This document shows positions 17,669 to 35,191 of a stretch of 64,000 bases of DNA, one piece after another. The DNA is taken from the NCBI GenBank assembly GCA_963737655.1, contig CAVTTN010000002.1:1952001-2016000 (forward strand), written 5' to 3'. Below the pieces are notes generated by a model, which did no database searches, was not told the DNA's origin, and was given only the letters and a program-made list of their open reading frames with translations. Within the stretch, counting starts at the first letter, position 1, and the number at the start of each line of letters is the position of its first letter. The stretch is from an uncultured Planctomycetota bacterium (GTDB lineage Bacteria > Planctomycetota > Planctomycetia > Isosphaerales > Isosphaeraceae). A program made the position numbers and the translations under genes.

Positions 17669-17992
17669 GGCTCAGGAGTCGAAGCCTTCGGTCGTGCTCG
17701 TCGTCGGCCTCGCCGGTCGCGCCTCGGCTCGACGACGCCATCGGTCGGGCCCCTGGAGTCGGCCTCGGCGGTGGTGCGCGTCGTCGCCCTCGCCGGCCGC
17801 GCCCCGAGGTCGGGCCCGTCGGCCGGCGCCCCCCTTGCCAACGCCGTCGGTCCGTGCCAGGATCGTCGGTGTCGGCGCGTGGGGCGTCGCCGGGGCGCCG
17901 CCTAACCCGGCGCTGCAGCGGACCCGGCCCGCGGTCGACGATCACTCTCCTCTCAATCTCGCCGGGCGCGGGCCGGTCCGCTGAGCTTTGTC
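17662..17992 (+). repeat. Apparently gene-less cassette, copy 1 of 3
   Basis: 331 bp, near-identical to 19536-19866 and 20325-20655. Confidence 0.85.
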
Positions 17993-17999
17993 GTTAGGC
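17900..17999 (+). repeat. attC site
   Basis: GCCTAAC...GTTAGGC with L boxes. Confidence 0.9.
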
Positions 18000-18147
18000 G
18001 TCGCGCCCTCGACACGGTTGGTTTGGCTCGTCGTCGAAGTCGCTGGGAGTGCCCCTGCTGTCAAAGTCTGTGGGTTGAGCTCCGGCTTCGCCGTCGCGAT
18101 GTTCGGTCATCGTCTCCAAAGGTCATCGTCGTCGCGGTCGGCCGCCT

Positions 18148-18527
18148 CTTCGTGAACTCTTTGGCTGGGAACGGCCATCGACGCGCGACACTACCCCAAC
18201 CCCAGGCTTTGTGGCCGGGCAGCGGCGAGGTCCGGGTAGCAAACCGACGGATTCAAGAGCGGCGGACGAGGCGCGGGCCGAGAGGGGAGTCGGTTACGCT
18301 TGCAGTCTCTTCGACGGGAACATCCCCGCGAGTCGGCTCGCGGGGCGTCGCCAATGACCGGATCACGACCTCTCGGGCCAGGCTAACCTACGGGCAGGGA
18401 GCACCAAGGTGGAGACGGCCGGGAGGCCCGCGCCACACTCAGGCTACGCCGCGCCGGGTCGGCGGGCAAGTCGTCCCCGACCCCCGTTCACGCCCCGTCG
18501 GGAGCGGACGAAGGCCGCAGGATGGTT
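18148..18527 (-). mobile_element. 380-bp non-autonomous IS110/IS1111-derived element, copy a (type 1)
   Basis: cttcgtgaactct...gcaggatggtt inserted in GCCT^AAC; homologous to the IS110 upstream non-coding region. Confidence 0.9.
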
Positions 18528-18623
18528 AACCTCGCGCTGCAGCGGACCCGTCCCGCGGTTGACGATTTTTCTGGTGTCCAGCCCGCTGGCCGCGGGTCGG
18601 TCCGCTGAGCTTGGTCGTTAGGC
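18528..18623 (+). repeat. attC site, R'' interrupted by element a
   Basis: gcct(18144-47)|aacctcgcgctgcagcggacc...gttaggc. Confidence 0.88.
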
Positions 18624-18648
18624 GTATTAGGTCGATCGGAGGCTCTGG

Positions 18649-19059
18649 ATGCGCAGTAGAGTCCGCTATGTCAGTGGTTTGCTATCGCTGTCCGTGCTGA
18701 TCTTTACCTCGTGCAGACCGGAGCGACCGGCGGGCAGCGAGGCGGACGCGTGGCCATCCGACCAAGAGATCCTCGCCTACCTCGATGGCAAGACGATTTT
18801 CGAGCCCACGCCTGCCTCATCGGAGAAGGGAGGTAGTGTACCCCCGAAATCCTTCTTGCTGAAGGCAGGCAACATTTCCTCCTTGGAAGTGAAGAAGTCG
18901 GGGGTTGCTGTCTCGGGCGAGCCTTGGACGACGCCGATCCATTTCATCCTCGACGAGGGGGGGCGTAAATATGCCGTTGATGCCAGCGTCGATCACCGGA
19001 AAGTCGATAATAAACGGGCCTTCTTCGGGCTCAAGGCCGAGCGCATCGCTGAGCAGTGA
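18649..19059 (+). CDS. Cassette ORF, predicted lipoprotein
   Basis: GGAGG RBS, lipobox LIFTSC, fills the cassette. Confidence 0.75.
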   Translation: MRSRVRYVSGLLSLSVLIFTSCRPERPAGSEADAWPSDQEILAYLDGKTIFEPTPASSEKGGSVPPKSFLLKAGNISSLEVKKSGVAVSGEPWTTPIHFILDEGGRKYAVDASVDHRKVDNKRAFFGLKAERIAEQ

Positions 19060-19064
19060 CGCCT

Positions 19065-19444
19065 CTTCGTGAACTCTTTGGCTGGGAACGGCCATCGACG
19101 CGCGACACTACCCCAACCCCAGGCTTTGTGGCCGGGCAGCGGCGAGGTCCGGGTAGCAAACCGACGGATTCAAGAGCGGCGGACGAGGCGCGGGCCGAGA
19201 GGGGAGTCGGTTACGCTTGCAGTCTCTTCGACGGGAACATCCCCGCGAGTCGGCTCGCGGGGCGTCGCCAATGACCGGATCACGACCTCTCGGGCCAGGC
19301 TAACCTACGGGCAGGGAGCACCAAGGTGGAGACGGCCGGGAGGCCCGCGCCACACTCAGGCTACGCCGCGCCGGGTCGGCGGGCAAGTCGTCCCCGACCC
19401 CCGTTCACGCCCCGTCGGGAGCGGACGAAGGCCGCAGGATGGTT
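19065..19444 (-). mobile_element. 380-bp element, copy b (type 1)
   Basis: Same sequence and insertion point as copy a. Confidence 0.9.
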
Positions 19445-19542
19445 AACCTCGCGCTGCAGCGGACCCCGGCCACGGGCCGCGCTCCCCTCTTCCCTCAAGC
19501 TCACTGGTCCGTGGCCGGGTCCGCTGAGCTTTGGCGTTAGGC
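19445..19542 (+). repeat. attC site, interrupted by element b
   Basis: aacctcgcgctgcagcgg...gttaggc. Confidence 0.88.
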
Positions 19543-19866
19543 GGCTCAGGAGTCGAAGCCTTCGGTCGTGCTCGTCGTCGGCCTCGCCGGTCGCGCCTCG
19601 GCTCGACGACGCCATCGGTCGGGCCCCTGGAGTCGGCCTCGGCGGTGGTGCGCGTCGTCGCCCTCGCCGGCCGCGCCCCCGAGGTCGGGCCCGTCGGCCG
19701 GCGCCCCCCTTGCCAACGCCGTCGGTCCGTGCCAGGATCGTCGGTGTCGGCGCGTGGGGCGTCGCCGGGCGCCGCCTAACCCGGCGCTGCAGCGGACCCG
19801 GCCCGCGGTCGACGATCACTCTCCTCTCAATCTCGCCGGGCGCGGGCCGGTCCGCTGAGCTTTGTC
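19536..19866 (+). repeat. Gene-less cassette, copy 2 (includes most of attC 19774-19873)
   Basis: Repeat of 17662-17992. Confidence 0.85.
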
Positions 19867-19873
19867 GTTAGGC
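19774..19873 (+). repeat. attC site
   Basis: Identical to attC 17900-17999. Confidence 0.9.
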
Positions 19874-19890
19874 GGCGGGAGACTCCCGCG

Positions 19891-20211
19891 ATGGATTGGC
19901 TCGAACCGTGGTGCGATGTCGCCGACCTCGGCCCCGACTTCGCGGCTACATTCGAGCGGGTTCTGGCACGCGAGGTCGCGCCGGGCCATCCCCTCCACAG
20001 CATCCCGGTCGCGGCAGTCGGCAAGCGCGACGGCACCGACGACGTGCTCTTTCGGCTGCTCGACGGCTCGGAGCGTGTCGCCGCCGTGCACCTGACCTGG
20101 ACTCGCTCCCCTCCCGAGCGGCCACCCTGGCCGGCAACCGAACTGTTCGCCGACTTCGAGGCGTTCGCCCGGCACCAGATGCGGCCCGACCATGAGGAAT
20201 TCGTGACGTAG
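19891..20211 (+). CDS. Cassette ORF, hypothetical protein
   Basis: RBS then ATG just after the attC; stop just before the next attC. Confidence 0.75.
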   Translation: MDWLEPWCDVADLGPDFAATFERVLAREVAPGHPLHSIPVAAVGKRDGTDDVLFRLLDGSERVAAVHLTWTRSPPERPPWPATELFADFEAFARHQMRPDHEEFVT

Positions 20212-20231
20212 CGGCGGGCACAAGAGACGCC

Positions 20232-20331
20232 GCCTAACCCGGCGCTGCAGCGGACCCGGCCGCCGCGGTCGGTTTCTGGTAACATCAAGGTCACTGGTCG
20301 GCGGCCGGTCCGCTGAGCTTGGTCGTTAGGC
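20232..20331 (+). repeat. attC site
   Basis: GCCTAAC...GTTAGGC; loop contains TGGTAACAT. Confidence 0.9.
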
Positions 20332-20655
20332 GGCTCAGGAGTCGAAGCCTTCGGTCGTGCTCGTCGTCGGCCTCGCCGGTCGCGCCTCGGCTCGACGACG
20401 CCATCGGTCGGGCCCCTGGAGTCGGCCTCGGCGGTGGTGCGCGTCGTCGCCCTCGCCGGCCGCGCCCCCGAGGTCGGGCCCGTCGGCCGGCGCCCCCTTG
20501 CCAACGCCGTCGGTCCGTGCCAGGATCGTCGGTGTCGGCGCGTGGGGCGTCGCCGGGGCGCCGCCTAACCCGGCGCTGCAGCGGACCCGGCCCGCGGTCG
20601 ACGATCACTCTCCTCTCAATCTCGCCGGGCGCGGGCCGGTCCGCTGAGCTTTGTC
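20325..20655 (+). repeat. Gene-less cassette, copy 3
   Basis: Repeat of 17662-17992. Confidence 0.85.
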
Positions 20656-20662
20656 GTTAGGC
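20563..20662 (+). repeat. attC site
   Basis: Identical to attC 17900-17999. Confidence 0.9.
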
Positions 20663-20680
20663 GGCTCGGAGGCAACCGCA

Positions 20681-21091
20681 ATGGCCGAGCCTTTCGACCG
20701 CATCGCCGCGCTGGGCGAGTTGCCCCCGACGCTCGCGGCACGCCTGCGGTTCCTCCCCGAGACCGATCGCTCCGTCATCGGCACCATCCGATGCGGCGTT
20801 CTGTTCGTCATGGCCTTCTGGAGCGGCCCCGCCCGGCTGGCCTTCGCCGAACTCAAGCGGGTGCTCGCGGCCGAGGACATCGCCGGCCGCTTAGAGTTGG
20901 TCGTCGTCGATACCGATGGCTGCCCCGACCTCCAGGATCAGCCCGAGTTCACCGGCAAGCTGCACGGCGCCGGCGAGGCCGCTTGGGTTAATCAGGGCGT
21001 CATTGTCTGCACGTCGGGCCTGGGCTATCATCCCGAGTGCTTCGGGCCGAATACGCGGCGCCTCCTGGGCGAATGCGCCGCCTCCCCGTGA
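20681..21091 (+). CDS. Cassette ORF, possible degenerate thioredoxin-like fold
   Basis: GGAGG RBS; AFWSGPA at a WCGPC-like position, later LVVVDTD; stop codon supplied by the IS end. Confidence 0.65.
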   Translation: MAEPFDRIAALGELPPTLAARLRFLPETDRSVIGTIRCGVLFVMAFWSGPARLAFAELKRVLAAEDIAGRLELVVVDTDGCPDLQDQPEFTGKLHGAGEAAWVNQGVIVCTSGLGYHPECFGPNTRRLLGECAASP

Positions 21092-21243
21092 ACTCTTCGC
21101 GCCGGCGGTTCGGCATCGGTTGATACTATGTGGGCATGATCATCGATCGGCCCGCATCCCCCCCGGCCCCCGCGACGACGGGGACGGCCCGATCCGGCTC
21201 GGCGGGGCTTGCGGTCGGGCGCCCCGCCTCCGACCCGTCGCCC

Positions 21244-22596
21244 TCACGACGGCGGCGACGGCGGCGACTTCGCCACCAGCTCGTAGCCCAGCGACCTCGC
21301 CTTGCGCCGCAGCGACCGCTCCTGCTTCGCGCGCACCTCGGCCTCGTACTCCGCCAGCGACCTCGACACGTACTCCTCGCCGTGCCTGAGCATCCGGTAC
21401 ACCAGCCGCGACAGCTTGTGCGCCGTCGCCGTGATCGCCCCCCGGCCGCCGATCCGGCCCTTGATCCGCCGGTAGAACTGGCCCGTCGCCGTCGCCGTCC
21501 GGCCCGCCGCCTGCGCCGCCATCCGCAGCGCCTGACCCACCCGGTTCTTGCCCTTGCGGGGCGTGCGACGCCGCTCGGTCTTGTTGCTCCGGTCGGTCCG
21601 CGGGCAGAGGCCCAGCCAGCTGGCGAAGTGCTTCTCGCTCGGGAACCGCCCCACGTCGCCGCCGAGCTCGGCCAGGATCACCGTCGCCGTCGTCGCGTCG
21701 ATCCCCTCGATGGCCGTCAGGTCCACGCCGATCGCCCGGGCCAGCTTGGCCGGGGCGTCGAACCGCACGTCGTTGGCCTTGCGGCCGCGCTTGCGGGGCC
21801 TCGCCGCGATCGGCCGGCCTTCGGAGCGGTCGGGCAGGCGGTCCAGCTCCTCGGCGATCCGGGCGTCGCACTCGTCGACCTGGCGGTGGAGGTAGTGGTA
21901 CAGGTCGGACGCCTGCCTCAGGGCGAACAGGTGCTCGGGCCGCCAGGTGCCCTCCAGGGCCCGGGCGATCTCCGCCTCGTCCCGGGCGCACCGCTCGTGC
22001 CGCAGCGCGGCCAGCTTCGTGGCGTCCCGCTCGCCGGCGAGGATCGCGGCGATGATCGCCGTGCCGGTGACGCCCGTGATGCTGCTGACGACCTCGGTCA
22101 GCTTCACATTCATCTGCTCCAAAGCCTTCTGCATGTGCTGGACGTGGTGCGAGGCGTACCGCACGAGCATCTGCCGCTGCCGCCAGTAGCCGCGCAGGGC
22201 CAGGACGGCCCCGGGCGGGCGGAAGGACGGGCGGAGCAGGCCGCACGAGTGGAGGCGCTGGAGCCACTGGCAGTCGAGCCGGTCGGTCTTGGGCCGGGCG
22301 CCGCAGTGGCTGGCCTGGCTCGGCTCGATGAGGAAGACCTCGAAGCCGCGCGATTCGAGCAGCTCGAACAGGGGGATCCAGTAGACGCCGGTGGACTCCA
22401 GGACCACCGAGGTGACGCCCTCGGCCCGGAACCAATCGGCCAGGGCGTGGAGGTCGGCCGAGCAGGCGCCGAAGGTGCGGACCCGTCCGGGCCCGACGCA
22501 GGCGACGTGGTTGTCGGAGTGGACGTCGACGGCGGCGGCGTGGGGGTGGACGACCGGCAGGGACGCGTCGGGATCGGGGGGCGTGCGGCGACTCAT
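21244..22596 (-). CDS. IS110 family transposase/recombinase
   Basis: RuvC-like DEDD residues AVDVH, LESTG, KTDRLD; C-terminal FASWLGLCP...S..RKG motif. Confidence 0.93.
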   Translation of the reverse strand: MSRRTPPDPDASLPVVHPHAAAVDVHSDNHVACVGPGRVRTFGACSADLHALADWFRAEGVTSVVLESTGVYWIPLFELLESRGFEVFLIEPSQASHCGARPKTDRLDCQWLQRLHSCGLLRPSFRPPGAVLALRGYWRQRQMLVRYASHHVQHMQKALEQMNVKLTEVVSSITGVTGTAIIAAILAGERDATKLAALRHERCARDEAEIARALEGTWRPEHLFALRQASDLYHYLHRQVDECDARIAEELDRLPDRSEGRPIAARPRKRGRKANDVRFDAPAKLARAIGVDLTAIEGIDATTATVILAELGGDVGRFPSEKHFASWLGLCPRTDRSNKTERRRTPRKGKNRVGQALRMAAQAAGRTATATGQFYRRIKGRIGGRGAITATAHKLSRLVYRMLRHGEEYVSRSLAEYEAEVRAKQERSLRRKARSLGYELVAKSPPSPPS

Positions 22597-22629
22597 GGCG
22601 AGGGCTCCGGCGGGTGGGGGGCCAAGCCG

Positions 22630-22850
22630 TCGCGGGCCGAGAGGGGGTCCGGGGACGAGGTAGTCTCCCCGACGGGAACGTCGCGGGGCCGTGTTGACAC
22701 GGCGCCGCGGGTCACCAATGATGGGGCCACGGCCTCTCGGGCCAAGCTAACCTGCGGGCGGCGAGCACCAGGGAGATGACGGCCGGGAGGCCCGCGGCGG
22801 CGACGCCGATCGTACCGCGCCCCGGTTCACGTCCGTCGGGGAGCGGTCGC
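22630..22850 (-). ncRNA. Putative bridge/seek RNA of the IS110 element
   Basis: Non-coding region 5' of the transposase with stems (ccgagagg/cctctcgg, gccgtgt/acacggc), a target match ctaacct (22747-53) and an own-end match ctccccg (22665-71). Boundaries approximate. Confidence 0.65.
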
Positions 22851-22867
22851 AGGCCGCGCGGAGAGTT

Positions 22868-22965
22868 AACCTCGCGCTGCAGCGGACCCCGGCCACGGGC
22901 CGCGCTTTCTCTTCTCTCGATGCTCGGTGGTCCGTGGCCGTGTCCGCTGAGCTTTGTCGTTAGGT
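22868..22965 (+). repeat. attC site, interrupted by the IS110 element
   Basis: aacctcgcgctgcagcgg...gttaggt. Confidence 0.88.
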
Positions 22966-22980
22966 GGCTCGGAGCTGTCA

Positions 22981-23367
22981 ATGCTCGTTGACTCATGCAT
23001 TCCGGTCATACCCAGCGCCGATCTGGAGAGGAGCCTGCGCTTCTGGGTGGATGGGCTTGGTCTGTCCATGGATCGTGCCATGCGGCACGACGGTCGCCTC
23101 GTCGGTTGTATGGTGCATAACGAGCGGCTGTATTTTTGGCTCAATCAACGAGCCGGTCCCCCGACCGCGTCGGAGAATTACGAGGGCATACGCCTCTACT
23201 GGACGCCAGGCAACATCAAGGCCATTAGGGAGCGTCTCCTGCGACTCGGTTACGCGGCTTCCGAGATTGAGGATCGTGAATATGGACAGGCCGAGTTCGT
23301 CGTCAAGGATGATGACGGGTACTCCCATTGCTTCGGAGTCGCTACAACAAGAGCGGCTAGCCTATGA
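22981..23367 (+). CDS. Cassette ORF, VOC/glyoxalase/bleomycin-resistance family
   Basis: IPVIPSADLERSLRFWVDGLGL...EDREYGQAEFVVKDDDG. Confidence 0.85.
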   Translation: MLVDSCIPVIPSADLERSLRFWVDGLGLSMDRAMRHDGRLVGCMVHNERLYFWLNQRAGPPTASENYEGIRLYWTPGNIKAIRERLLRLGYAASEIEDREYGQAEFVVKDDDGYSHCFGVATTRAASL

Positions 23368-23380
23368 CCGCAAGGGTGCC

Positions 23381-23480
23381 GCCTAACCCGGCGCTGCAGC
23401 GGACCCCGCACCGCCGCGGCGCCTGTTGTCTTATCATTGCTCGCTCGGCGGTGCGGGTCCGCTGAGCTTTTGCGTTAGGC
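23381..23480 (+). repeat. attC site
   Basis: GCCTAAC...GTTAGGC. Confidence 0.9.
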
Positions 23481-23497
23481 GGCGGAGAGATTCCCCG

Positions 23498-23845
23498 TTG
23501 GCGATCGACAACCCAAACGTCATCGACCTAATCGGCACCGACCGGACGACCGGCGAGGCCGTGCTCACCATCAGCGATCACCTCGAATGGGACGACCGCA
23601 ACGAGCATCTGCTGATCTTGCAAGAGAAAATCAACCGCTACATCGGTTTCATCGAGTCTGGCGAACTGCTGGAAAACTACGCGGGTGCGGCGGGCCGACT
23701 GATCCGCGTCGAGGTCGTTTGCAAGTATCCGCCGAGTGAAGTCGGCGAGCGATTCCTGAACCTCGCCAGCGAAACGTTCGAGAAGGCCGGTTGGTCCCTC
23801 ACTTGGCGTTGGTGGCCGAGCAAGCAGCTCGACGCCTCTTCGTGA
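23498..23845 (+). CDS. Cassette ORF, DUF6572-like protein
   Basis: TTG start after GGAGAG; VIDLIG...LTISDHLEW...HLLILQEKINRY..FIESGEL. Confidence 0.75.
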   Translation: MAIDNPNVIDLIGTDRTTGEAVLTISDHLEWDDRNEHLLILQEKINRYIGFIESGELLENYAGAAGRLIRVEVVCKYPPSEVGERFLNLASETFEKAGWSLTWRWWPSKQLDASS

Positions 23846-24217
23846 ACTCTTTGGCTGGGAACGGCCATCGACGCGCGACACTACCCCAACCCCAGGCTTT
23901 GTGGCCGGGCAGCGGCGAGGTCCGGGTAGCAAACCGACGGATTCAAGAGCGGCGGACGAGGCGCGGGCCGAGAGGGGAGTCGGTTACGCTTGCAGTCTCT
24001 TCGACGGGAACATCCCCGCGAGTCGGCTCGCGGGGCGTCGCCGATGACCGGATCACGACCTCTCGGGCCAGGCTAACCTACGGGCATGGAGCACCGAGGT
24101 GGATCCGGCCACCGACCCGCGCCACGAACCGGGCTACGCCGCGCCGGGTCGGTGGGCAAGTCGGCCCCGGCCCCCGTTCACGCCCCCTCGGGAGCGGACG
24201 AAGGCCGCAGGATGGTT
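23838..24217 (-). mobile_element. 380-bp element, copy c (type 1/type 2 chimera)
   Basis: Left part matches copy a, right part matches copy f. Confidence 0.9.
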
Positions 24218-24313
24218 AACCTCGCGCTGCGGCGGACCCGGCCCGCCGCGGTGCTTTCCTGTGCTATCATCATTTCCTCGGCGGTGCGGGTCCGCTGAGT
24301 TTTGTCGTCAGGG
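24218..24313 (+). repeat. attC site, interrupted; R' degenerate (GTCAGGG)
   Basis: aacctcgcgctgcggcggacc...ggtccgctgagt...gtcaggg. Confidence 0.8.
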
Positions 24314-24329
24314 GGATTGATCGTTTACC

Positions 24330-24601: not shown

Positions 24602-24981
24602 CTTCGTGAACTCTTTGGCTGGGAACGGCCATCGACGCGCGACACTACCCCAACCCCAGGCTTTGTGGCCGGGCAGCGGCGAGGTCCGGGTAGCAAACCG
24701 ACGGATTCAAGAGCGGCGGACGAGGCGCGGGCCGAGAGGGGAGTCGGTTACGCTTGCAGTCTCTTCGACGGGAACATCCCCGCGAGTCGGCTCGCGGGGC
24801 GTCGCCAATGACCGGATCACGACCTCTCGGGCCAGGCTAACCTACGGGCAGGGAGCACCAAGGTGGAGACGGCCGGGAGGCCCGCGCCACACTCAGGCTA
24901 CGCCGCGCCGGGTCGGCGGGCAAGTCGTCCCCGACCCCCGTTCACGCCCCGTCGGGAGCGGACGAAGGCCGCAGGATGGTT
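24602..24981 (-). mobile_element. 380-bp element, copy d (type 1)
   Basis: Same sequence and insertion point as copy a. Confidence 0.9.
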
Positions 24982-25077: not shown

Positions 25078-25105
25078 GGCTCGGCGAAGATGCCTCGGGA
25101 CACCC

Positions 25106-25501
25106 GTGACGTTCGACCCCGACCGAATCATGACCCTCTCGACCATGCAGTTCCGACGTTTCGGAATCGCGTGCTGCTATCGGTTGGGGTGCGACCGCAA
25201 AGACAAGCGTCTCGCGAAGGCGCTCAAGAGACTGGAGCAATCGCTGGGGCCGCCGGCCGACGAGAGCATGCGTCGTGACGCGCTCAACGCCGCCAACTCC
25301 GCTTGCCGAGACCTCTCCGCAAGCAGCGGCGTGATACAGGTCGTTGCCCGCACCCTTGTTTGTGCCTGCTGGGACGGTCCCAATGAGAATCTGATTGGGA
25401 ATTTCGAAGCGGCGCTTGAACAAGGAGAGCACTTGAGCAGGTCCGAGATCAAGGACATTGAAAGCGAGATCTTTCGGGCTATCCTGGGCGCCTCTTCGTG
25501 A
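25106..25501 (+). CDS. Cassette ORF, hypothetical protein
   Basis: Fills the cassette; stop supplied by element e. Confidence 0.7.
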   Translation: MTFDPDRIMTLSTMQFRRFGIACCYRLGCDRKDKRLAKALKRLEQSLGPPADESMRRDALNAANSACRDLSASSGVIQVVARTLVCACWDGPNENLIGNFEAALEQGEHLSRSEIKDIESEIFRAILGASS

Positions 25502-25873
25502 ACTCTTTGGCTGGGAACGGCCATCGACGCGCGACACTACCCCAACCCCAGGCTTTGTGGCCGGGCAGCGACGAAGTCCGGGTAGCAAACCGACGGATTC
25601 AAGAGCGGCGGACGAGGCGCGGGCCGAGAGGGGAGTCGGTTACGCTTGCAGTCTCTTCGGCGGGAACATCCCCGCGAGTCGGCTCGCGGGGCGTCGCCAA
25701 TGACCGGATCACGACCTCTCGGGCCAGGCTAACCTACGGGCAGGGAGCACCAAGGTGGAGACGGCCGGGAGGCCCGCGCCACACTCAGGCTACGCCGCGC
25801 CGGGTCGGCGGGCAAGTCGTCCCCGACCCCCGTTCACGCCCCGTCGGGAGCGGACGAAGGCCGCAGGATGGTT
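25494..25873 (-). mobile_element. 380-bp element, copy e (type 1, a few SNPs), followed by a truncated attC
   Basis: Followed by aacctcgcgct and then unrelated sequence. Confidence 0.9.
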
Positions 25874-25909
25874 AACCTCGCGCTCGACACCCAAGCCGGA
25901 GCATGTTGC

Positions 25910-26764: not shown

Positions 26765-26865
26765 GCCTGACCTCGCGCTGCAGCGGACCCCGCACCGCCG
26801 CGGCGCCTTCTGGTAGAATCAACGCTGCTCGGGCGGTGCGGGTCCGCTGAGCTTCGGCGTGAGGC
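26765..26865 (+). repeat. attC site (GCCTGAC...GTGAGGC variant)
   Basis: Conserved L boxes and stem. Confidence 0.8.
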
Positions 26866-26885: not shown

Positions 26886-27332
26886 ATGGAAGTCGTGAAA
26901 TCCAACCGCTACGGGCCGCTGGAGCCTGCTCGACTCGAAGCGTTCGAATCCCTGATCGGGTCGCGTTTCCCGGGAGACTTCCGTCAGTTCCTCCTCGACC
27001 ATAATGGCGGTCGACCCGCCTTCGATCACCTCCTCGATGCCGAGCGGGACGACTCGTTGGCGTGCCTGAACAGCACTTACGGGCTGCACGACGGACCGGA
27101 GTATTGCCGCATGGACTCGACCTTCGACACGCTCCGTGATGTGCTGCCGGCCGGCCTCATCTCCTTCGGCGACGATCCGGGAGGGAACCTCTTCTGCATC
27201 GGGGTCGCCGGGGAGTATCGAGGCCGGGTTTATTTGTGGGACCACGAGACGGCGGAACCCAAGCTGCTGGGAGAATCGTTCGAGGAGTTCCTGTCGCGTT
27301 TGGGCCCCGATCCCTGGGACGCCTCTTCGTGA
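26886..27332 (+). CDS. Cassette ORF, SMI1/KNR4 (SUKH) family immunity-type protein
   Basis: LEAFESLIGSRFPGDFRQFLLDHNGG, ISFGDDPGGNLFC, GRVYLWDHE. Confidence 0.88.
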   Translation: MEVVKSNRYGPLEPARLEAFESLIGSRFPGDFRQFLLDHNGGRPAFDHLLDAERDDSLACLNSTYGLHDGPEYCRMDSTFDTLRDVLPAGLISFGDDPGGNLFCIGVAGEYRGRVYLWDHETAEPKLLGESFEEFLSRLGPDPWDASS

Positions 27333-27704
27333 ACTCTTCTCCATCGAACGGCCGTCGATGCGCGACATTCCCCCGACCCCTGGCCGTGTGGCCGGGCAGC
27401 GACGAGGTCCGGGTGGCAATCCGACGGATTCGGGATCGGCGATCGAGGCGCGGGCCGAGAGGGGAATCGGTTACGTTCGGAGTCTCTTCGACGGGGACAT
27501 CCCCGCGAGTCGCCGCGCGGGGCGTCGCCGATGACCGGATCACGACCTCTCGGGCCAGGCTAACCTACGGGCATGGAGCACCGAGGTGGATCCGGCCACC
27601 GACCCGCGCCACGAACCGGGCTACGCCGCGCCGAGTCGGTGGGCAAGTCGGCCCCGGCCCCCGTTCACGCCCCCTCGGGAGCGGACGAAGGCCGCAGGAT
27701 GGTT
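27325..27704 (-). mobile_element. 380-bp element, copy f (diverged type 2)
   Basis: Same length, ends and guide-like segments; many internal substitutions. Confidence 0.9.
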
Positions 27705-28592: not shown

Positions 28593-28607
28593 GGCGAGGC
28601 GCGACCG

Positions 28608-29057
28608 ATGGCGAAGGGACTGCCGGGGACGGTCGCCGTCAACCACGACGATTACCACGCCGAATACGTCGGGCGAACCAAGGACGGCGCGCAATTCTTC
28701 CTCACGACGCCCTTCGTGCCGGGGGTCGGAGACCAGCCGGGCCGGGAGTTCATCGCGCTCTACCTGTTCGACAAGGCTGGCCAACTCCAGGCGGCCACGA
28801 TCGACGACCTGGGGCCTCGCGAGACGATGGATCTGGGGGCGAGGATGGCCCGCCGAGACGAGTTGCTCGCCTCGCTGGGTGAGGTCAGCTATCAGCGAAT
28901 CAAAGTCGCCCCGTTTCGGATCGAGAGGTTCGGGGTTGAGTTCGGGTTCATCCCGCAGCCGCCCGAGGAGCCGGGCGAGGACTGGAGCGTCATCGTGATG
29001 CCGGGAGACGTCATGTGCTTCTGGCCGCCTTGGTCCAGCGGCGACTACGATACGTAA
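28608..29057 (+). CDS. Cassette ORF, hypothetical protein
   Basis: RBS GAGG; fills the cassette. Confidence 0.75.
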   Translation: MAKGLPGTVAVNHDDYHAEYVGRTKDGAQFFLTTPFVPGVGDQPGREFIALYLFDKAGQLQAATIDDLGPRETMDLGARMARRDELLASLGEVSYQRIKVAPFRIERFGVEFGFIPQPPEEPGEDWSVIVMPGDVMCFWPPWSSGDYDT

Positions 29058-29066
29058 TGCCGCGAC

Positions 29067-29167
29067 GCCTAACCTGGCGCGGCGTCGGACCCCGCACCGC
29101 CGCGGCGCGTTCTGCTACGATCGAAGGCCGCTCGGGCGGGTGGGTCTGCTGAGCTTTGGCGTTTGGC
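29067..29167 (+). repeat. attC site
   Basis: GCCTAAC...GTTTGGC. Confidence 0.82.
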
Positions 29168-29185
29168 GGCTCGGAGGGTCAGGCG

Positions 29186-29521
29186 TTGGAGGAGGCGTGT
29201 CCCCTCGAAGAAAAGCTGTCCAATGTCGCAGCCGACCTGCTGTCCGAGCGGCGGTTCGAGGCATTCGTCCGCCGCCTGTTCGCGGCCCCTCCCGGCGTGT
29301 GGCAGGGCGTGGCGGCCTGCTGCTCAAGCATGCCGGTGCTGCCGGGCCTCGCCGCCGAGGTCTTCGCCGGCCACGCCGAGTGCTTCGTGGTCACGCATCT
29401 GCCATGGCCCGGCCTTCCCTCCCGCGATCCCTACGCTCTGGTGCTGTTCCTGCACGCCGATATCATGTGGTCCACCACCGCGTTGTACAATCGCGCCGTG
29501 TTCGGGGCCGACTCTTCGTGA
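29186..29521 (+). CDS. Cassette ORF, hypothetical protein
   Basis: TTG start after GGAGG; stop supplied by element g. Confidence 0.6.
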   Translation: MEEACPLEEKLSNVAADLLSERRFEAFVRRLFAAPPGVWQGVAACCSSMPVLPGLAAEVFAGHAECFVVTHLPWPGLPSRDPYALVLFLHADIMWSTTALYNRAVFGADSS

Positions 29522-29893
29522 ACTCTTTGGCTGGGAACGGCCATCGACGCGCGACACTACCCCAACCCCAGGCTTTGTGGCCGGGCAGCGGCGAGGTCCG
29601 GGTAGCAAACCGACGGATTCAAGAGCGGCGGACGAGGCGCGGGCCGAGAGGGGAGTCGGTTACGCTTGCAGTCTCTTCGACGGGAACATCCCCGCGAGTC
29701 GGCTCGCGGGGCGTCGCCAATGACCGGATCACGACCTCTCGGGCCAGGCTAACCTACGGGCAGGGAGCACCAAGGTGGAGACGGCCGGGAGGCCCGCGCC
29801 ACACTCAGGCTACGCCGCGCCGGGTCGGCGGGCAAGTCGTCCCCGACCCCCGTTCACGCCCCGTCGGGAGCGGACGAAGGCCGCAGGATGGTT
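29514..29893 (-). mobile_element. 380-bp element, copy g (type 1)
   Basis: Inserted in GACT^AAC. Confidence 0.9.
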
Positions 29894-29988
29894 AACCTCG
29901 CGCTGCAGCCGACCCCACCCGCCGCGGCGGTTTTCGGTATAGTCGATGTCGCTCGGGCGGGTGGGTCTGCTGAGCTTTGGCGTTAGGC
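29894..29988 (+). repeat. attC site, interrupted by element g
   Basis: aacctcgcgctgcagccgacc...gttaggc. Confidence 0.85.
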
Positions 29989-30004
29989 CCAAGGAGGGCG
30001 GGTC

Positions 30005-30775
30005 GTGGCTCGGAAGCGGAAGAGCACCCCCGGTCCGTACTTGTTGTACCTTGAGGTCCTCCGCGGTCGCATCCCGGACGTCAGCCGCTTCCCGTACAAC
30101 CTGCCCGCCTTCCGCGCCCTGACGACGCTGCCGTTCCATCCCAAGGTGACGTTCCTCGTCGGGGAGAACGGGTCCGGCAAATCGACACTCCTGGAGGCCG
30201 TCGCCGTCGAGTGCGGGTTGAATCCCGAAGGCGGCAGCCGGAACTTCCACTTCGCCACGCGGGCCTCGCACTCGTCGCTCGACGAATGCGTTCGGCTCGC
30301 GAAGGCCCCGGCTTCGCCCGGCGACTGGTACTTCTTGCGGGCCGAGAGCTTTTACAACGTGGCTTCGGAGATCGAACGTCTCGACGAGGGACCGGGAGGC
30401 GGGCCGATCATCGGTGCCTACGGCGGCAAGTCGCTCCACGAGCAGTCGCACGGGGAGTCTTTTTTCGCCCTGTTCCAGAACCGGTTCCGGGACCATGGGC
30501 TGTACCTGATGGATGAGCCGGAGGCCGCGTTGTCGCCGAAGCGGCAACTCCAATTCCTCGCATTGCTCCACGACTACGTGTGCCGGGGCGGGCAGTTCGT
30601 CATCGCCACGCACTCACCGATCATCATGGCGTACCCCGAATCGCGCATCTATTTGCTGGACGGCGAGGGTATCCGGGAGATTGCTTACACGGACACCGAG
30701 CACTACCAGATCACTCGGGGATTCCTGAGCAACCCGCAGCGGTCGCTGTCGGTGCTGCTCGGTGAGGAGCGATAA
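30005..30775 (+). CDS. Cassette ORF, stand-alone ABC/AAA-type ATPase
   Basis: Walker A GENGSGKS, signature QSHGE, Walker B LMDEPE, H-loop ATHSP. Confidence 0.9.
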   Translation: MARKRKSTPGPYLLYLEVLRGRIPDVSRFPYNLPAFRALTTLPFHPKVTFLVGENGSGKSTLLEAVAVECGLNPEGGSRNFHFATRASHSSLDECVRLAKAPASPGDWYFLRAESFYNVASEIERLDEGPGGGPIIGAYGGKSLHEQSHGESFFALFQNRFRDHGLYLMDEPEAALSPKRQLQFLALLHDYVCRGGQFVIATHSPIIMAYPESRIYLLDGEGIREIAYTDTEHYQITRGFLSNPQRSLSVLLGEER

Positions 30776-30779
30776 ATAG

Positions 30780-30883
30780 GCCCAGCCTCGCGCCGCTGCA
30801 GCGGACCCGGCCCACCTCCTCGCTTTCTGGTAACATGAAGGTCACTCTCGGCGGCGCGGGTCCGCTGAGCTTGGGCGTTAGGC
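30780..30883 (+). repeat. attC site (R'' degenerate)
   Basis: gctgcagcggacc...ggtccgctgagc...gttaggc. Confidence 0.8.
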
Positions 30884-30899
30884 GTGTCGCGAAAGCACA

Positions 30900-31469
30900 A
30901 TGAGCGAACCGAGACTTACATTCGCAACGCAATCCGAGTGGGAAGACTGGCTTGAAGCCAATGGCAGCACTTCGCCCGGCGTGTGGCTTCGCTTGGCGAA
31001 GAAGTCTGCCGAGCAACCAACGGTCACTTATGCACAAGCGCGAGAAAGCGCTCTTTGCCACGGGTGGATCGATGGCCAAAAGCAATCGGAAAACCAGCAC
31101 TATTGGCTTCAGCGCTTTACACCGAGAACTGCCAAGAGCATCTGGTCGAAGATCAACAAGGAAAAGGCGGAGGCACTCATCACATCGCAACGGATGCGGG
31201 CAGCAGGTCTGGTCGCGATAGAACGGGCAAAATCGGACGGAAGATGGGATGCGGCATACTCATCGGCGAGCACTTCGACCGTCCCTGACGACCTGCAAGA
31301 AGCCCTTGATGCAAACCCAAGAGCCAAAACGTTTTTTGCGACGCTCAATAGCCAAAATAGGTATGCCATCTTGTTTCGAATTCAAAAAGTCAAGAAGGCC
31401 GAGACACGGGCGAAGAAGATCGCTCAATTCATTGAAATGCTCAATGATGGCGAAAAGCTCTATCCATAA
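30900..31469 (+). CDS. Cassette ORF, YdeI/OmpD-associated (bacteriocin-protection) family
   Basis: WEDWL, ALCHGWIDG, RFTPR..KSIWSKINK, PDDLQEAL, KKAETRAKKI; visibly lower GC than the host. Confidence 0.85.
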   Translation: MSEPRLTFATQSEWEDWLEANGSTSPGVWLRLAKKSAEQPTVTYAQARESALCHGWIDGQKQSENQHYWLQRFTPRTAKSIWSKINKEKAEALITSQRMRAAGLVAIERAKSDGRWDAAYSSASTSTVPDDLQEALDANPRAKTFFATLNSQNRYAILFRIQKVKKAETRAKKIAQFIEMLNDGEKLYP

Positions 31470-31553
31470 CGAAGCCTGTCTAGTTGATGCAGAAAAGTTT
31501 ATCAAAATGATACATGTTAAATATTGATACTTGTCATAGACTGCGAGCGTCCC

Positions 31554-31658
31554 GCCTGACCTCGCGCCGCAGCGGACCCGGCCCGCCGCGGCGCCCGCTG
31601 GGGATGCGTAGGACAGACTCGGCGGGCCGGTCAGGTCCTCTGAGCTTGATCGTTAGGC
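31554..31658 (+). repeat. attC site (GCCTGAC variant)
   Basis: gcctgacctcgcgccgcagcggacc...gttaggc. Confidence 0.8.
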
Positions 31659-31674
31659 GGCAGGAGACCCCACG

Positions 31675-32180
31675 GTGGACGAGCCTGGGTTTTGGAAGAT
31701 CATCGATGCGGCCGGGCGAGCAGCCCACAGTGACCCCGAGCGGCAACTCTCCGCCGTCCGCAAGCGGTTGAGCGATCTCGCGCCGAGGAACTGGTCGAGT
31801 TCCACGCGATCTTCAACCGCAAATTGGCCGAAGCCTATACCTGGGACCTCTGGGGCGCCGCCTATCTCATCAACGGTGGGTGTTCTGATGATGGCTTCGC
31901 CTACTTCCGGGCCTGGCTTATCTCATGTGGTCAATCCGTCTACTCTTCAGCCCTCCGCAAACCCGACTCACTGTCGAGCATCGTCGATCCCGATCGCGAC
32001 GATTACGAGTTCGAGGATCTGTGGGGGATCGCCCAAGTCATCTACGAAGAGACGACGGGTAGCGAGATGCCAACGGTCGATTTTGCTTGGCCTGCCGAGC
32101 CGAAGGGGGATCGCTGGGATTTCGACGACGACGAACAAGTCACACGCAAGCTCCCCAAACTGGCCGAGCTTTACGCCTGA
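31675..32180 (+). CDS. Cassette ORF, DUF4240 family, 1-bp frameshift near 31785
   Basis: MDEPGFWKII in one frame; LWGAAYLINGGCSDDGFAYFRAWLI...LPKL in another. Confidence 0.8.
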
Positions 32181-32274
32181 CCTCGCGCTGCAGCGGACCC
32201 CGCACCGCCTCGGTGCTCCCCGTGCTATCATGGATTCCTGGGCGGTGCAGGTCCGCTGAGCTCTATCGTTAGGC
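32175..32274 (+). repeat. attC site (GCCTGAC variant; TGA is the gene's stop)
   Basis: gcctgacctcgcgctgcagcgg...gttaggc. Confidence 0.85.
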
Positions 32275-32289
32275 GGCTTGGAGACACCG

Positions 32290-32853
32290 ATGGAGGAATC
32301 GGACCTCGCCGCGATTGCGCACCGGCTCGCTCGCCCGAGCGTCCTGCTCAAGCGCGACGCCGCCGTGGGTGCTCTCGCCGGCGTGTGGGGCGGCGCAGGC
32401 GTTGTGCCCGCCCCGGCCGGGCCTTTCCGGCACTGGCTCAGCATCGACTGCCGCTTCCTCCCTGCCGGGCTCGGGCCGCCTGGCGGCGTCCTGAGCGTCT
32501 ACACCAACGAACAGGACTGCGTGTCCGGTTACGTGGGCCACGACCCGGCGGCGAGCCTCGCGGTCGGCGAGGGGCATCCTCTTTATGCACAGCCCAGGTC
32601 CTCGCTTCCACCGCCGGAGGCCCTGTCCGCAGAGGACGATGCGACGTACATTCACCTCTGGCAATCCAACTGTCCTCTGTATGCGAGTGAGGCGACGGCG
32701 GTGCTCGGCGGCTGGCATTTCCCCTGGCCCGACGGCGATTGGGAGGAGTTGCGTGAGCATCGCCTTCTGGTCTGGACGATCGAGGACTCGGAGCCGTGGG
32801 TCGAGGTGTGGGCCGAACCCTTCGGGTTCCGCGTTCTGCAGCGGATCACGTAA
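32290..32853 (+). CDS. Cassette ORF, hypothetical protein
   Basis: GGAG RBS; fills the cassette. Confidence 0.75.
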   Translation: MEESDLAAIAHRLARPSVLLKRDAAVGALAGVWGGAGVVPAPAGPFRHWLSIDCRFLPAGLGPPGGVLSVYTNEQDCVSGYVGHDPAASLAVGEGHPLYAQPRSSLPPPEALSAEDDATYIHLWQSNCPLYASEATAVLGGWHFPWPDGDWEELREHRLLVWTIEDSEPWVEVWAEPFGFRVLQRIT

Positions 32854-32857
32854 CGCC

Positions 32858-32915
32858 GCCTAACCGGGCGCTGCAGCGGACCCCGCACCGCCGCATCTGA
32901 TCTTTGGCGTTAGGC
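32858..32915 (+). repeat. Short 58-bp attC with internal deletion
   Basis: GCCTAAC...GTTAGGC but the right arm of the stem is missing. Confidence 0.75.
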
Positions 32916-32929
32916 GGCTTGGAGGCGAC

Positions 32930-33286
32930 GTGTCCGAAGGCGCACTCTTCAAGCCCGGTCAACTCGACTTCGTCCACTCGATCCGAGACCTGCTCGGCGA
33001 GGTCCGTGAGCGACCAGCCATGTGGCTCGGTGAGAAGTCGCTGACCGGGCTCAAGTGCCTCCTGTTCGGCGACGAGATCGCTTGTGGCAAGCATGGCATC
33101 ACCGAGCCGGATCAACTGCCGGATGACGTCCCCTGGCGGGGTTTCCGCGAGTGGCTTGCGGGGCGTTATGATAGAGTCGGCTGGAGCGTCGATTGGTACT
33201 GGTTGCTCATCGAACATTCGTCCTCGCAGGAGGAGGCGTTCGATCGCTTCTTCGAGCTGCTCGCGGAATACGAGGCCGCCGTCTAA
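32930..33286 (+). CDS. Cassette ORF, hypothetical protein
   Basis: GTG start after GGAGG; TAA stop inside the R'' box. Confidence 0.75.
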   Translation: MSEGALFKPGQLDFVHSIRDLLGEVRERPAMWLGEKSLTGLKCLLFGDEIACGKHGITEPDQLPDDVPWRGFREWLAGRYDRVGWSVDWYWLLIEHSSSQEEAFDRFFELLAEYEAAV

Positions 33287-33380
33287 CCTCGTGCTGCAGA
33301 GGACCCCGCACCGCCGCGGCGGTTTACGCGTTATCCTCGTACTCTCGGCGGTGTGGGTCCGCTGAGCTTTGGCGTTCGGC
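33281..33380 (+). repeat. attC site
   Basis: GTCTAAC...GTTCGGC. Confidence 0.85.
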
Positions 33381-33395
33381 GGCGGAGAATCAACC

Positions 33396-33803
33396 ATGAT
33401 CCGACGGCCAGACCTCCGCCCCAGGGTCCGCCATCTCCTGATCGGCGTGGCCGTCGCAGCAGTCGGCCTCTTCGTATTCCGGGACACCTGGGATGGTGGC
33501 GAGGAGGTCATCGTTCGCCAAGATCCGGAGGATCGGCGACCGTGGAATCGCGGCGATGCGATCCGAGTCCGGCTGGATGGCGACCGTTTGCGCGCGTACG
33601 GCCTCTCCAAAGCAGACGTGGTGGAAGCGCTGACACCGAGCACCATTCTCGGTTCCCAGAAGCGAGTCGATCCGCCCGCGGGGGTCGTGTACTTCAGGCG
33701 CCTCCCACGAGCCGACCAGCTCGAAAACTGCGTCTTGAAGGCCGATGCCGAGGGGGAGATCGTCCGGCTCAAGGATGTTGCGAGGGTCGAAGTCGGTCGG
33801 TGA
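33396..33803 (+). CDS. Cassette ORF: one TM helix plus a stand-alone AcrB-like docking (DN) subdomain
   Basis: AIRVRLDGDRLRAYGLSKADVVEAL...VLKADAEGEIVRLKDVARVE aligns by eye with the permease at 13162. Confidence 0.75.
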   Translation: MIRRPDLRPRVRHLLIGVAVAAVGLFVFRDTWDGGEEVIVRQDPEDRRPWNRGDAIRVRLDGDRLRAYGLSKADVVEALTPSTILGSQKRVDPPAGVVYFRRLPRADQLENCVLKADAEGEIVRLKDVARVEVGR

Positions 33804-33924
33804 AGGCTCGGCATCGCCCATCGATTCTCGACGGGATGGGGAGGGGGTCGAGTGGCTCGGCTCGGGCGGGCCGTCCGTCAGAGAGGGTGGTCACCGCCGC
33901 CGGAAGCGTGCCGGCCGGTCTGCC

Positions 33925-34024
33925 GCGTAACCTCGCTCCGCCGCGGGTTCCGCGGCGCCGCGGCGCTTGTGGTAGCATCACCGATGTCTCGGCGGTGCGG
34001 ATCCGCTGAGCTTGATCGTTTGGC
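33925..34024 (+). repeat. attC site (degenerate)
   Basis: gcgtaacctcgc...tccgctgagc...gtttggc. Confidence 0.75.
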
Positions 34025-34065
34025 GGCGGAGATCCGACCGGGCTTTACAGGAAGGAGTTCCAGGT

Positions 34066-34506
34066 ATGCGATCGCGTTCCGTCTGGCTATGCGGCTCGAT
34101 CGTCGTGGCCCTGGCTTGCGCGGGGTTGAGGGCTGACGTTCCGCCCCTCGGCGTCGATGAGTTGAAACAGCAGGCGACTCACGTCGTCGTCGGGAAGCTC
34201 ACGACGGTGTATCGCTCGGCAAAAACCGGCGACGACTTCGTGAGGACGAGCGGCATCGCCGAGATCGTTGTCGAGAAGGTCGAGAAAGGCGGCGGGCCAA
34301 AGGTTGGTGAGGTCACGTTCGTCCGGTTCTGGAACCAGCACTGGGTTGGTAAGGGAATGGTTCCCCCGCACAGCCCCGGCCATCACGTCCCGGCGGAGGG
34401 CGCGGTCGTCCGCGCCTACCTGAAGCGAGGCCAGGATGGCAGCTACGAGGCCCTGTTGCCGAATGGATTGGCGGTCGTGGCCGAGCCCGCGATCCGGCCT
34501 CGATGA
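34066..34506 (+). CDS. Cassette ORF, secreted hypothetical protein
   Basis: AGGAG RBS; signal peptide ending GLRA. Confidence 0.75.
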   Translation: MRSRSVWLCGSIVVALACAGLRADVPPLGVDELKQQATHVVVGKLTTVYRSAKTGDDFVRTSGIAEIVVEKVEKGGGPKVGEVTFVRFWNQHWVGKGMVPPHSPGHHVPAEGAVVRAYLKRGQDGSYEALLPNGLAVVAEPAIRPR

Positions 34507-34527
34507 GCGTACGGCTCCGGAAGCTGC

Positions 34528-34626
34528 GCCCAACCTCGCTCTGCGGCGGACCCGGCCACGCGGGCGCGGTATGATCGTGCGGGGCGTACCGGAATGGGGC
34601 CGGTCCGCGGAGCTTGGTCGTGAGGC
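34528..34626 (+). repeat. attC site (GCCCAAC...GTGAGGC)
   Basis: gcggacccggcc...ggccggtccgcggagc. Confidence 0.8.
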
Positions 34627-34644
34627 GGCGGAGTCAAAGACGCT

Positions 34645-35088
34645 ATGTCTGTCGAGATCGAGCCGGTGCTGCTCTCGGGCGATGACGACGCCATCTTCGA
34701 GTTCGCGTCGGACCCCGACAATTGCCTCGTCACCGACCATCGGGAGGACGAGGGCGACCTGATCGGCTACGTCATCGACGCGATCCCCGAGGCCGGGTTG
34801 GCCTTCTCGGAGGACGACTCGGGCGATGACCTGATCCTCTCCTGCCGAGGCCGCTCCACGCCGGTCGGCCTGACGATGACCCCCCGGGACCGCTACATCA
34901 CCATCCGCGCCCTCAACCGCCTCCTGGCGGGCGACTATGAGATGCGGCTGTTCCGGGTCACGCGCCAGGCGGACACGCACTCCTTCTATCTCAAGCCCGC
35001 CCGATGGTGGAGCGAAGCGGAGAGGGACCATCCCGAGGAGGTGGACCGAGTCTTCCTGGTGGTCGACGAGGCGCTGGACTTCCCGTGA
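34645..35088 (+). CDS. Cassette ORF, acidic hypothetical protein
   Basis: GGAG RBS; fills the last cassette. Confidence 0.75.
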   Translation: MSVEIEPVLLSGDDDAIFEFASDPDNCLVTDHREDEGDLIGYVIDAIPEAGLAFSEDDSGDDLILSCRGRSTPVGLTMTPRDRYITIRALNRLLAGDYEMRLFRVTRQADTHSFYLKPARWWSEAERDHPEEVDRVFLVVDEALDFP

Positions 35089-35089
35089 C

Positions 35090-35191
35090 GCCGAACCTGG
35101 CGCCGCGGCGGACCCCGCGCCGCCGCGGAGCTTTCTCCTTCGAGTCGACGGATCCTCGGCGGTGCGGGTCCGCCGAGCTGATGCGTCAGGC
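35090..35191 (+). repeat. Last attC site (GCCGAAC...GTCAGGC)
   Basis: gcggacccc...gggtccgccgagc. Confidence 0.78.

Follow-up and report, generated by a model that had tools for sequence, protein, structure and literature searches.

An IS110-family element and its 380-bp transposase-less derivatives, probably guided by a bridge RNA, in the attC sites of a planctomycete cassette array

Introduction

Among the insertion sequences (IS) of the IS110 group, IS621 is reported to carry its right target guide on the 3' side of the first loop of its bridge RNA, where the last two bases pair with the CT core, and its right donor guide likewise in the second loop (PMC11208158; PMC11208160). For the IS110-family elements of Pseudomonas putida, the published account states that ISPpu9 requires AG on both sides, and it describes MITEPpu9, a derivative resembling a MITE (miniature inverted-repeat transposable element), in which the Ssr9 small RNA gene lies between IS-like ends (PMC12288879); for ISPpu10, a stem-loop in the target is reported to be required on top of pairing (10.64898/2026.03.19.712850). 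The members of the IS1111-attC group (ISKpn4, ISPst6, and ISPa25) are described as having subterminal inverted repeats and a guide RNA (seekRNA) downstream of the transposase gene (PMC11187229). In our study, we analysed a stretch of 64,000 nucleotides (the window; C2:1952001-2016000) from contig CAVTTN010000002.1 (C2) of an uncultured Planctomycetota bacterium of the Isosphaeraceae (assembly GCA_963737655.1), the genome of which is 7.63 Mb with 68.7% G+C. A cassette array in this window was found to contain eight inserts within its attC sites. On the basis of sequence comparison, the inserts are very probably an IS110-family, bridge-RNA-guided IS and 380-bp transposase-less derivatives of it (minis), which have invaded the attC sites of the integron of this genome and of its clusters of attC sites lacking integron integrases (CALIN). 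The mechanism has been known since 2024, and the inserts add a new example of it.

The element resembles IS621 and the IS110 group in its recombinase with DEDD and Tnp domains, its long upstream non-coding region and its RNA with two loops (PMC11208160; PMC11208158). As in IS621, insertion is specific for site and orientation, and the 3' strand of each loop ends with AG and would pair with the CT core and the bases to its right. The predicted right-hand guide, however, comprises 5+2 bases here, whereas 2+2 bases are reported for IS621; no match of the left-hand (5') strand was found in the lineages compared, the dinucleotides of the two junctions (CT and TT) differ, and the target is the R'' box of attC and not a repetitive extragenic palindromic (REP) sequence as in IS621. 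The element shares with ISPpu9 and ISPpu10 the IS110 family, the AG flanks in transposase orientation and a target within a hairpin-forming repeat (PMC12288879), although the reported target of those two elements is REP and not attC. In contrast to MITEPpu9, the minis contain the whole bridge-RNA region with a putative donor guide of their own (PMC12288879). Fixed point and fixed orientation of insertion in attC, found in 36 of 36 copies, are features in common with the IS1111-attC group; however, the RNA region of the element lies upstream of the start codon (271 nt) and not downstream of the gene, and the NCBIfam match is to the IS110 model. By family and mechanism the element belongs to the IS110 group and falls outside the IS1111-attC group. 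Group IIC-attC introns are likewise selfish and specialised on attC sites; as retro-elements they have a reverse transcriptase, and no part of them is found in the element described here. In the literature searched, we found no IS110-group element specialised on attC, and no mini keeping the whole bridge-RNA gene with its own donor guide.

Results

attC array and inserted elements

The window was found to contain 24 attC-type sites between 17.9 and 35.2 kb, the same number as in a preliminary description made from the letters of the window alone. A repeat of ~100 bp, GCCTAAC-N5-GCTGCAGCGGACC...GGTCCGCTGAGCT-N4-CGTTAGGC, closes each short cassette, and the 3' ends of the cassettes contain the imperfect inverted repeat R''-L''...L'-R' (GCCTAAC...GTTAGGC) that is characteristic of integron attC sites. 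The sole integron integrase of the genome (C2:6777135-6778073; TIGR02249, 474.6 bits against a cut-off of 265) adjoins an array of the same repeat, the first site of which lies ~450 bp away at C2:6778524. The repeats of the window are therefore attC sites, and the window array is a CALIN. A genome-wide scan with a two-half pattern gave 81 attC sites and missed a few degenerate ones, and the occupancy table covers 84 attC sites, 54 with the word CTAACCT and 30 without it. The coordinates of the features are given in Table 1.

Table 1. Features of the cassette array and of the inserted elements (window coordinates).
Feature	Position	Strand	Remarks
Cassette array (CALIN)	17900..35191	+	24 attC-type sites, integrase-less within the window
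Full-length IS110-family element	21084..22867	-	1784 bp, at GCCT^AACCT
Transposase / bridge recombinase	21244..22596	-	450 amino acids; PF01548 + PF02371; NF033542
Bridge-RNA-like non-coding region	22606..22803	-	two predicted stem-loops, each with an internal loop; folds, alignment with 15 homologues, pair counts
Putative target guide, full element	22747..22753	-	RNA AGGUUAG (+ strand CTAACCT), loop 1 3' strand
Putative donor guide, full element	22665..22671	-	RNA CGGGGAG, loop 2 3' strand
Mini copy 1	18148..18527	-	380 bp, transposase-less; putative target guide 18383-18389; putative donor guide CGAAGAG 18307-18313
Mini copy 2	19065..19444	-	putative guides 19300, 19224; an empty paralogue of its cassette lies elsewhere in the genome
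Left flank of mini copy 2	18985..19064	+	80/80 match to C2:6787822-6787901; paralogous attC uninterrupted
Mini copy 3	23838..24217	-	95% identical to copy 1; putative guides 24073, 23997
Mini copy 4	24602..24981	-	putative guides 24837, 24761
Mini copy 5	25494..25873	-	putative guides 25729, 25653; right-hand attC cut off after AACCTCGCGCT
Mini copy 6	27325..27704	-	87% identical to copy 1; putative guides kept, 27560 and 27484
Mini copy 7	29514..29893	-	left flank GACT, not GCCT; putative guides 29749, 29673
Empty attC, CTAACCT then G	29069..29075	+	
Empty attC, CTAACCT preceded by GT, not GC	33283..33289	+	
Empty attC, CTGACCT	26767..26773, 31556-31562, 32177-32183	+	
Empty attC, CTAACCC (5 sites)	17902..17908; also 19776, 20234, 20565, 23383	+	
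Empty attC, other words (6 sites)	28502, 30793, 32868, about 33930, 34538, 35100		

The transposase of the full-length element contained an N-terminal DEDD (RuvC-like) domain (PF01548, residues 22-162, E = 1.9e-17) followed by a C-terminal Tnp domain (PF02371, residues 293-375, E = 5.9e-18), and it matched the NF033542 model 'IS110 family RNA-guided transposase' with 253 bits against a cut-off of 140. The non-coding region upstream of the gene was found to be longer (271 nt) than that downstream (~160 nt), and a structured RNA with two internal loops is predicted in the upstream region. These are the features of the IS110 group.

A BLAST search of the genome found 36 copies of the element, comprising 28 minis of 380 bp, six full-length copies, and two internally deleted copies of 996 and 648 bp. 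Three of the full-length copies are identical at 1784 bp, and the other three are 1802 bp long with 96.5-96.6% identity; 15 of the 28 minis are 100% identical. All 36 copies are in the same orientation, at (G/T)(C/A)CT^AACCT(C/T/G)GCGC, where ^ marks the insertion point. The mini is devoid of a transposase gene and keeps the upstream RNA region (75% identity to the full element over ~160 nt) and ~125 bp of the other end of the element, and the end motifs C(T/C)(T/C)CGTGAACTCTT and ...GTT are common to both forms. It is thus MITE-like, being gene-less with ends and internal sequence related to those of an autonomous element in the same genome. The minis would borrow the recombinase of the six full copies. 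In a second genome of the same genus (G003), a mini with 83% identity was found at the same attC position (GACGCCT^...GGTT^AACCTCGCGCTGCAG), with both putative guides kept. The full-length parent of the mini was not found; in G003, several contigs break off within the element, and the assembly contains no close transposase.

Three minor observations concern the inserted copies. In the copy L095, at a contig end of the second genome (G003:C69), the right flank reads AACTCGCGCTGCAG and lacks one C relative to AACCT; the cause is a post-insertion change or a fault of the assembly. At mini copy 5, the attC is cut after AACCTCGCGCT (25874-25884) and unrelated sequence follows; the same cassette with the same mini at C2:1679758 has an intact attC, which suggests a rearrangement at or after the insertion. 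At the 36 sites, the GCC TAA stop of the R'' box is interrupted by the insertion (for example, at window 18145-18156 and 21081-21092); the end of the element supplies an in-frame stop, TCT TCG TGA in the mini or TCC CCG TGA in the full element, and a cassette gene ending at the split TAA is lengthened by two codons and then meets a new stop. In 19 of the 36 occupied cassettes, the TAA frame, with 60 codons or more, was the longest open one, in a G+C-rich genome where long open frames are common.

Insertion boundary

The boundary of the insert was fixed by a filled and an empty copy of one cassette. Past the empty paralogue at C2:6787822-6787901, the sequence continues without interruption as GCCT AACCTCGCGCTGCAGCGGACCCCGGCCACGGGCCGCGCTC, and the occupied copy (mini copy 2) has this sequence as its right flank. 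The insertion point is GCCT^AACCT, and the insert reads CTTCG...GGTT, with one T ambiguous. AACCT therefore belongs to the target and not to the element, and the correlation between occupancy and CTAACCT is not circular. The preliminary description had used the same boundary with a caution about circularity; the boundary was right, and the caution can be dropped.

Site occupancy

After removal of the inserts, eight of the ten CTAACCT sites of the window were found to be occupied, against none of the other 14 attC sites (Fisher p = 6e-5), which confirms the claim of the preliminary description that occupancy follows this word. All eight inserts are flanked by ...(G/A)CCT on the left and by AACCTCGCGCT on the right. 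The word CTAACCT occurs 11 times in the window, whereas 1.2 occurrences are expected from shuffled sequences and none of 100 shuffles reached 11; eight of the 11 words are inside the inserts, one per insert, a feature on which the earlier reading had not remarked.

The same pattern was found when the attC sites were tabulated over the whole genome, as the preliminary description had proposed. The attC sites with CTAACCT were occupied in 36 of 54 cases and those with another word in 0 of 30 (p = 1.7e-10). It had singled out the CTAACCC and CTGACCT sites as the place for counter-examples, and none was seen there: the 13 CTAACCC sites, despite otherwise perfect halves, were all empty, and so were the six CTGACCT sites (p = 0.003 in comparison with the CTAACCT sites). 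The observation is real and highly non-random. In all, the genome contains 92 CTAACCT words, of which 36 are in element copies, 18 in an empty attC context, and 38 elsewhere. The 7-mer is necessary for insertion, yet apparently it does not suffice.

A cassette of ~331 bp with a CTAACCC attC, of which there are three copies in the window (17664-17990, 19543-19870, and 20335-20660) and ten or more in the genome, was never occupied, and it inflates the count of CTAACCC sites. The third CTGACCT site of the window closes a cassette (31677-32180) with two overlapping long open frames of 148 and 173 codons that enter the site at 32177, which suggests a frameshifted gene. The TGA at 32178 closes the frame open for 148 codons, and the earlier remark that TGA still serves as a stop at this site is borne out.

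Bridge-RNA-like region and its putative guides

The alignment of upstream regions comprised 17 sequences: 15 homologues retrieved via the transposase (41-84% identity), together with the mini and the full element. A conserved scaffold was found in two parts: a stem GGCCG/UGGCC around an internal loop with a small hairpin, and a stem CGAGAGG/CCUCUCG around a second internal loop with a hairpin. Within this scaffold, the strands of the loops are hypervariable between lineages. The stems of loop 1 are 95-100% paired. Both the G.U pairs (CCCGAGAGG with CCUCUUGG) and the stem pair 71-169, which changes from AU to GC in six sequences, are compatible with the transposase strand only. An Rfam search of 17-36 kb with E up to 1 found no RNA family for the element and gave weak miRNA-like matches on unrelated hairpins.

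Loop 1 has AGGUU-AG as its 3' strand; the reverse complement of this strand is the + strand word CT-AACCT, with the insertion point just after CT, and each of the 36 copies was found to hold one internal CTAACCT. In position and content this agrees with a right target guide, which would pair with the core and the target half to its right. In loop 2, the 3' strand corresponds in the same manner to a right donor guide (core and element end): CGGGG-AG in the full element is the reverse complement of CT+CCCCG, and CGAAG-AG in the mini that of CT+CTTCG, in each case the left junction of the element itself on the + strand.

The matches were also found in four other lineages, in which the element boundaries were placed by comparison of copies. 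In each of them the flank at the RNA-coding end is equal to the 3' strand of loop 1, and each has a different sequence: the flanks CATTC/CATTT, (C)TGTC, TTAGG, and CACAT stand beside loop 1 strands CAUUC/CAUUU-AG, CUGUC-AA, UUAGG-AG, and CACAU-AG, respectively. The far ends of these elements read TGGGG, TTGGG, TCAGG, and TGGGG, as does the strand of loop 2, and are followed by AG or AA and then by unrelated flank. The donor-side match thus holds in five lineages in all, including CGGGG (full) and CGAAG (mini). We take the 3' strands of the loops to be the guides, and these matches of flanks and ends across lineages are the main evidence for it.

The 5' strands of the loops end with CU/UU-GG, as expected for a match to the core. 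Elements with the same target carry four versions of the 5' strand (CAUCUCC, CUCCACC, AUCCACC, and ACUCUCC), the left side of the target has only ...C-CT in common, followed by variable cassette sequence, and the flanks on the non-RNA-coding side differ between copies. Recognition may therefore be of a half-site of ~7-8 bases.

Three ideas were rejected. The apparent complementarity of CCGUG/UCGUGA to the element end failed in other lineages or in the mini of the second genome, and so did that of the loop 1 5' strand to the other element end. The homologue L013 (guide GGGUU-AG) had been considered as an insertion in an attC, which its flank did not bear out.

A second, different IS110-family element was found at C2:~4847046-4848540 (transposase 4847309-4848397), with a loop 1 guide of GUGUU-AG. 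At C2:~4298500, an attC carries in its R' box, directly after ...CTGTGTT^AG, a relic of ~55 nt of the RNA-coding end of this element. This second IS110 lineage therefore lands on the opposite end of attC, and the GTTAG found there is an inverted copy of the CTAAC of R''.

Discussion

Proposed mechanism

In the proposed mechanism, the complex of recombinase and RNA would pair loop 1 with an attC R'' box reading CTAACCT, whereas loop 2 would pair with the joined ends of the excised circle, the junction of which is expected to read, in transposase orientation, ...GAGTTCACGAAG then A then ACCATCC.... Strand exchange at the core would give ...GC-CT-[element]-TT-AACCT.... Since the putative guide is complementary to CTAACCT, only cassette sites with that word would be targeted, and sites with any change in the 7-mer would go unused. 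The change in CTGACCT lies beside the core and leaves only an rU.dG wobble, and in CTAACCC the change lies at the guide's far end, as an rA.dC mismatch. The minis would provide a complete guide RNA gene with a donor code of their own and use the recombinase of the full copies.

Several findings weigh against this bridge-RNA-guided reading. The CTAACCT words outside attC were occupied in 0 of 38 cases, in contrast to 36 of 54 within attC (p = 3e-12), and therefore a match to the guide alone does not predict insertion. The 13 CTAACCC sites belong to only ~4 cassette families, and after deduplication the comparison becomes 0/4 against 34/52 (p = 0.02). In the hand-drawn structure with a three-way junction, covariation was weak, with a score of 0.130 as compared with 0.114 in shuffles, 45 of 500 of which were as high; RNAalifold on the MAFFT alignment recovered loop 1 and only parts of the rest. 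The 5' strands of the loops matched neither target nor donor, and an offset scan over nine lineages did not exceed the 95th percentile of the permuted controls; therefore only half of the pairing scheme of IS621 is demonstrated. Among the sequencing runs compared by sampled words, the best contained a share of 0.09 of the words; all matches were Logan contigs, and no RNA run was listed. Finally, the dinucleotides at the junctions differ in all 36 copies, with CT at the left junction and TT at the right one (+ strand), and this would require a G.T wobble or an asymmetric exchange. The G of the guide opposite the first position could pair with C and wobble with T, which would make TT donor and CT target cores compatible; the same asymmetry (AA/AG) was found in three of the other lineages.

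The preliminary description had stated that targeting is sequence-guided rather than hairpin-guided. The first part was right and now has a concrete basis in the complementarity of AGGUU-AG to CT-AACCT; the second part is not supported, in view of the 38 unoccupied words outside attC. The likeliest additional requirement would be the stem-loop of attC, by analogy with ISPpu10 and the REP hairpin, and the same picture could arise if insertions elsewhere were selected against.

Alternative explanations

It is possible, though we consider it rather doubtful, that sequence alone suffices and that the words outside attC, most of them in genes, are empty through selection or because too little time has passed. 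The guide match does account for all 36 insertions, and about two thirds of the attC sites with CTAACCT are filled while 18 are empty, which is the picture of an unsaturated process. Insertion between cassettes would moreover be cheap, as the element supplies an in-frame TGA two codons past the lost TAA. The difference between words within and outside attC is nevertheless very strong, and seven of the 38 words outside attC share the longer GCCTAACCT and are still empty. A target of 7-8 nt is also short in comparison with the 11 positions reported to be read by IS621 (PMC11208160), and ISPpu10 is reported to need a target stem-loop besides pairing (10.64898/2026.03.19.712850).

The preliminary description also regarded some empty sites as escape variants, that is, CTGACCT, CTAACCC, and the two diverged empty CTAACCT sites of the window as changes selected in the host to block insertion. 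Each of the first two words is one base off within the footprint of the guide and is never occupied, and the TGA at 32178 preserves the role of a stop codon. No sign of selection was found, however, and nothing in the occupancy data shows that CTGACCT or CTAACCC arose as a response to the element. Six sites with a perfect GCCTAACCTCGCGCTGCAGCGGACC over 25 bases (C2:284007, 285057, 285334, 4849751, 6782426, and 6787908) are also empty, and therefore emptiness needs no special explanation. The changes at the two window sites are tolerated elsewhere, as five of the 36 insertions are at CTAACCTG, the word of the empty site at 29069 with G after the 7-mer, and two have left flanks other than GCCT (GACT and TCCT). 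The R' boxes do not change in step. In all integrons, the R'' boxes of attC sites vary. We regard host escape as improbable, and the idea of escape variants is left unsupported.

It is very unlikely that the hairpin or a protein guides the element to attC, with CTAACCT being merely the commonest allele and the internal copy of the word a coincidence. Every insertion is in an attC, and other attC-specific elements are known, such as the group IIC-attC introns; yet attC sites without the word are empty throughout, including the 13 CTAACCC sites with otherwise perfect halves, and in four other lineages the flank and the loop strand change together. Common descent, in which a single occupied cassette was spread by the integron or through duplication with occupancy and allele inherited together, would explain the two pairs of copies with shared flanks (1673105 = 6786655, and the left flank common to 1679758 and 1977494), but it is equally hard to credit for the whole set, as there are 34 distinct left flanks and many attC loop sequences around elements that are 99-100% identical, and the same cassette exists both filled and empty.

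Implications

The bridge-RNA-guided reading gives this genome the character of a natural experiment, with 84 near-identical attC sites that differ at single bases and an occupancy that tracks the 7-base putative guide exactly. Specialisation on integron attC sites would then extend beyond the IS1111-attC group to the IS110 group, and a derivative without a transposase gene would be able to retain an entire guide-RNA gene and a donor code of its own. Beside ISPpu10, the confinement of the element to attC would provide a second natural case in which gating of RNA-guided recombination by a DNA stem-loop can be tested. A large share of the cassettes of this genome have the element within the recombination site.

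The minis outnumber the full copies by 28 to 6 at the same landing sites. A tentative extension, which we put forward as one possibility, is that the minis are guide-RNA-only parasites with a private donor code (CGAAG instead of CGGGG), a half-site guide (5+2) locked by the attC stem-loop, and an insertion that leaves the cassette usable. In that case, the RNA gene of the mini would program the borrowed enzyme to move the mini itself, without sharing the RNA of its parent, and the in-frame TGA, together with a GGTT in partial imitation of the R'' box that was split, would keep the cassette gene, and perhaps the attC, usable.

Other features near the array

A palindrome of ~60 nt was found at window 17560-17622, directly before the first cassette; its Rfam matches were weak and at chance level. 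The array is closed by a hairpin repeat of ~76 nt (window 35260-35335), with weak miRNA-like Rfam matches, and this repeat recurs at C2:~290990-291080 and ~1118400-1118480. Outside the window, the repeat adjoins GGAAAAGGGGACGGAG tandem motifs and small hairpins GCCTCCCCGTGAACTTTACACGGGC, and these small hairpins share CCCCGTGAAC with the end of the full element.

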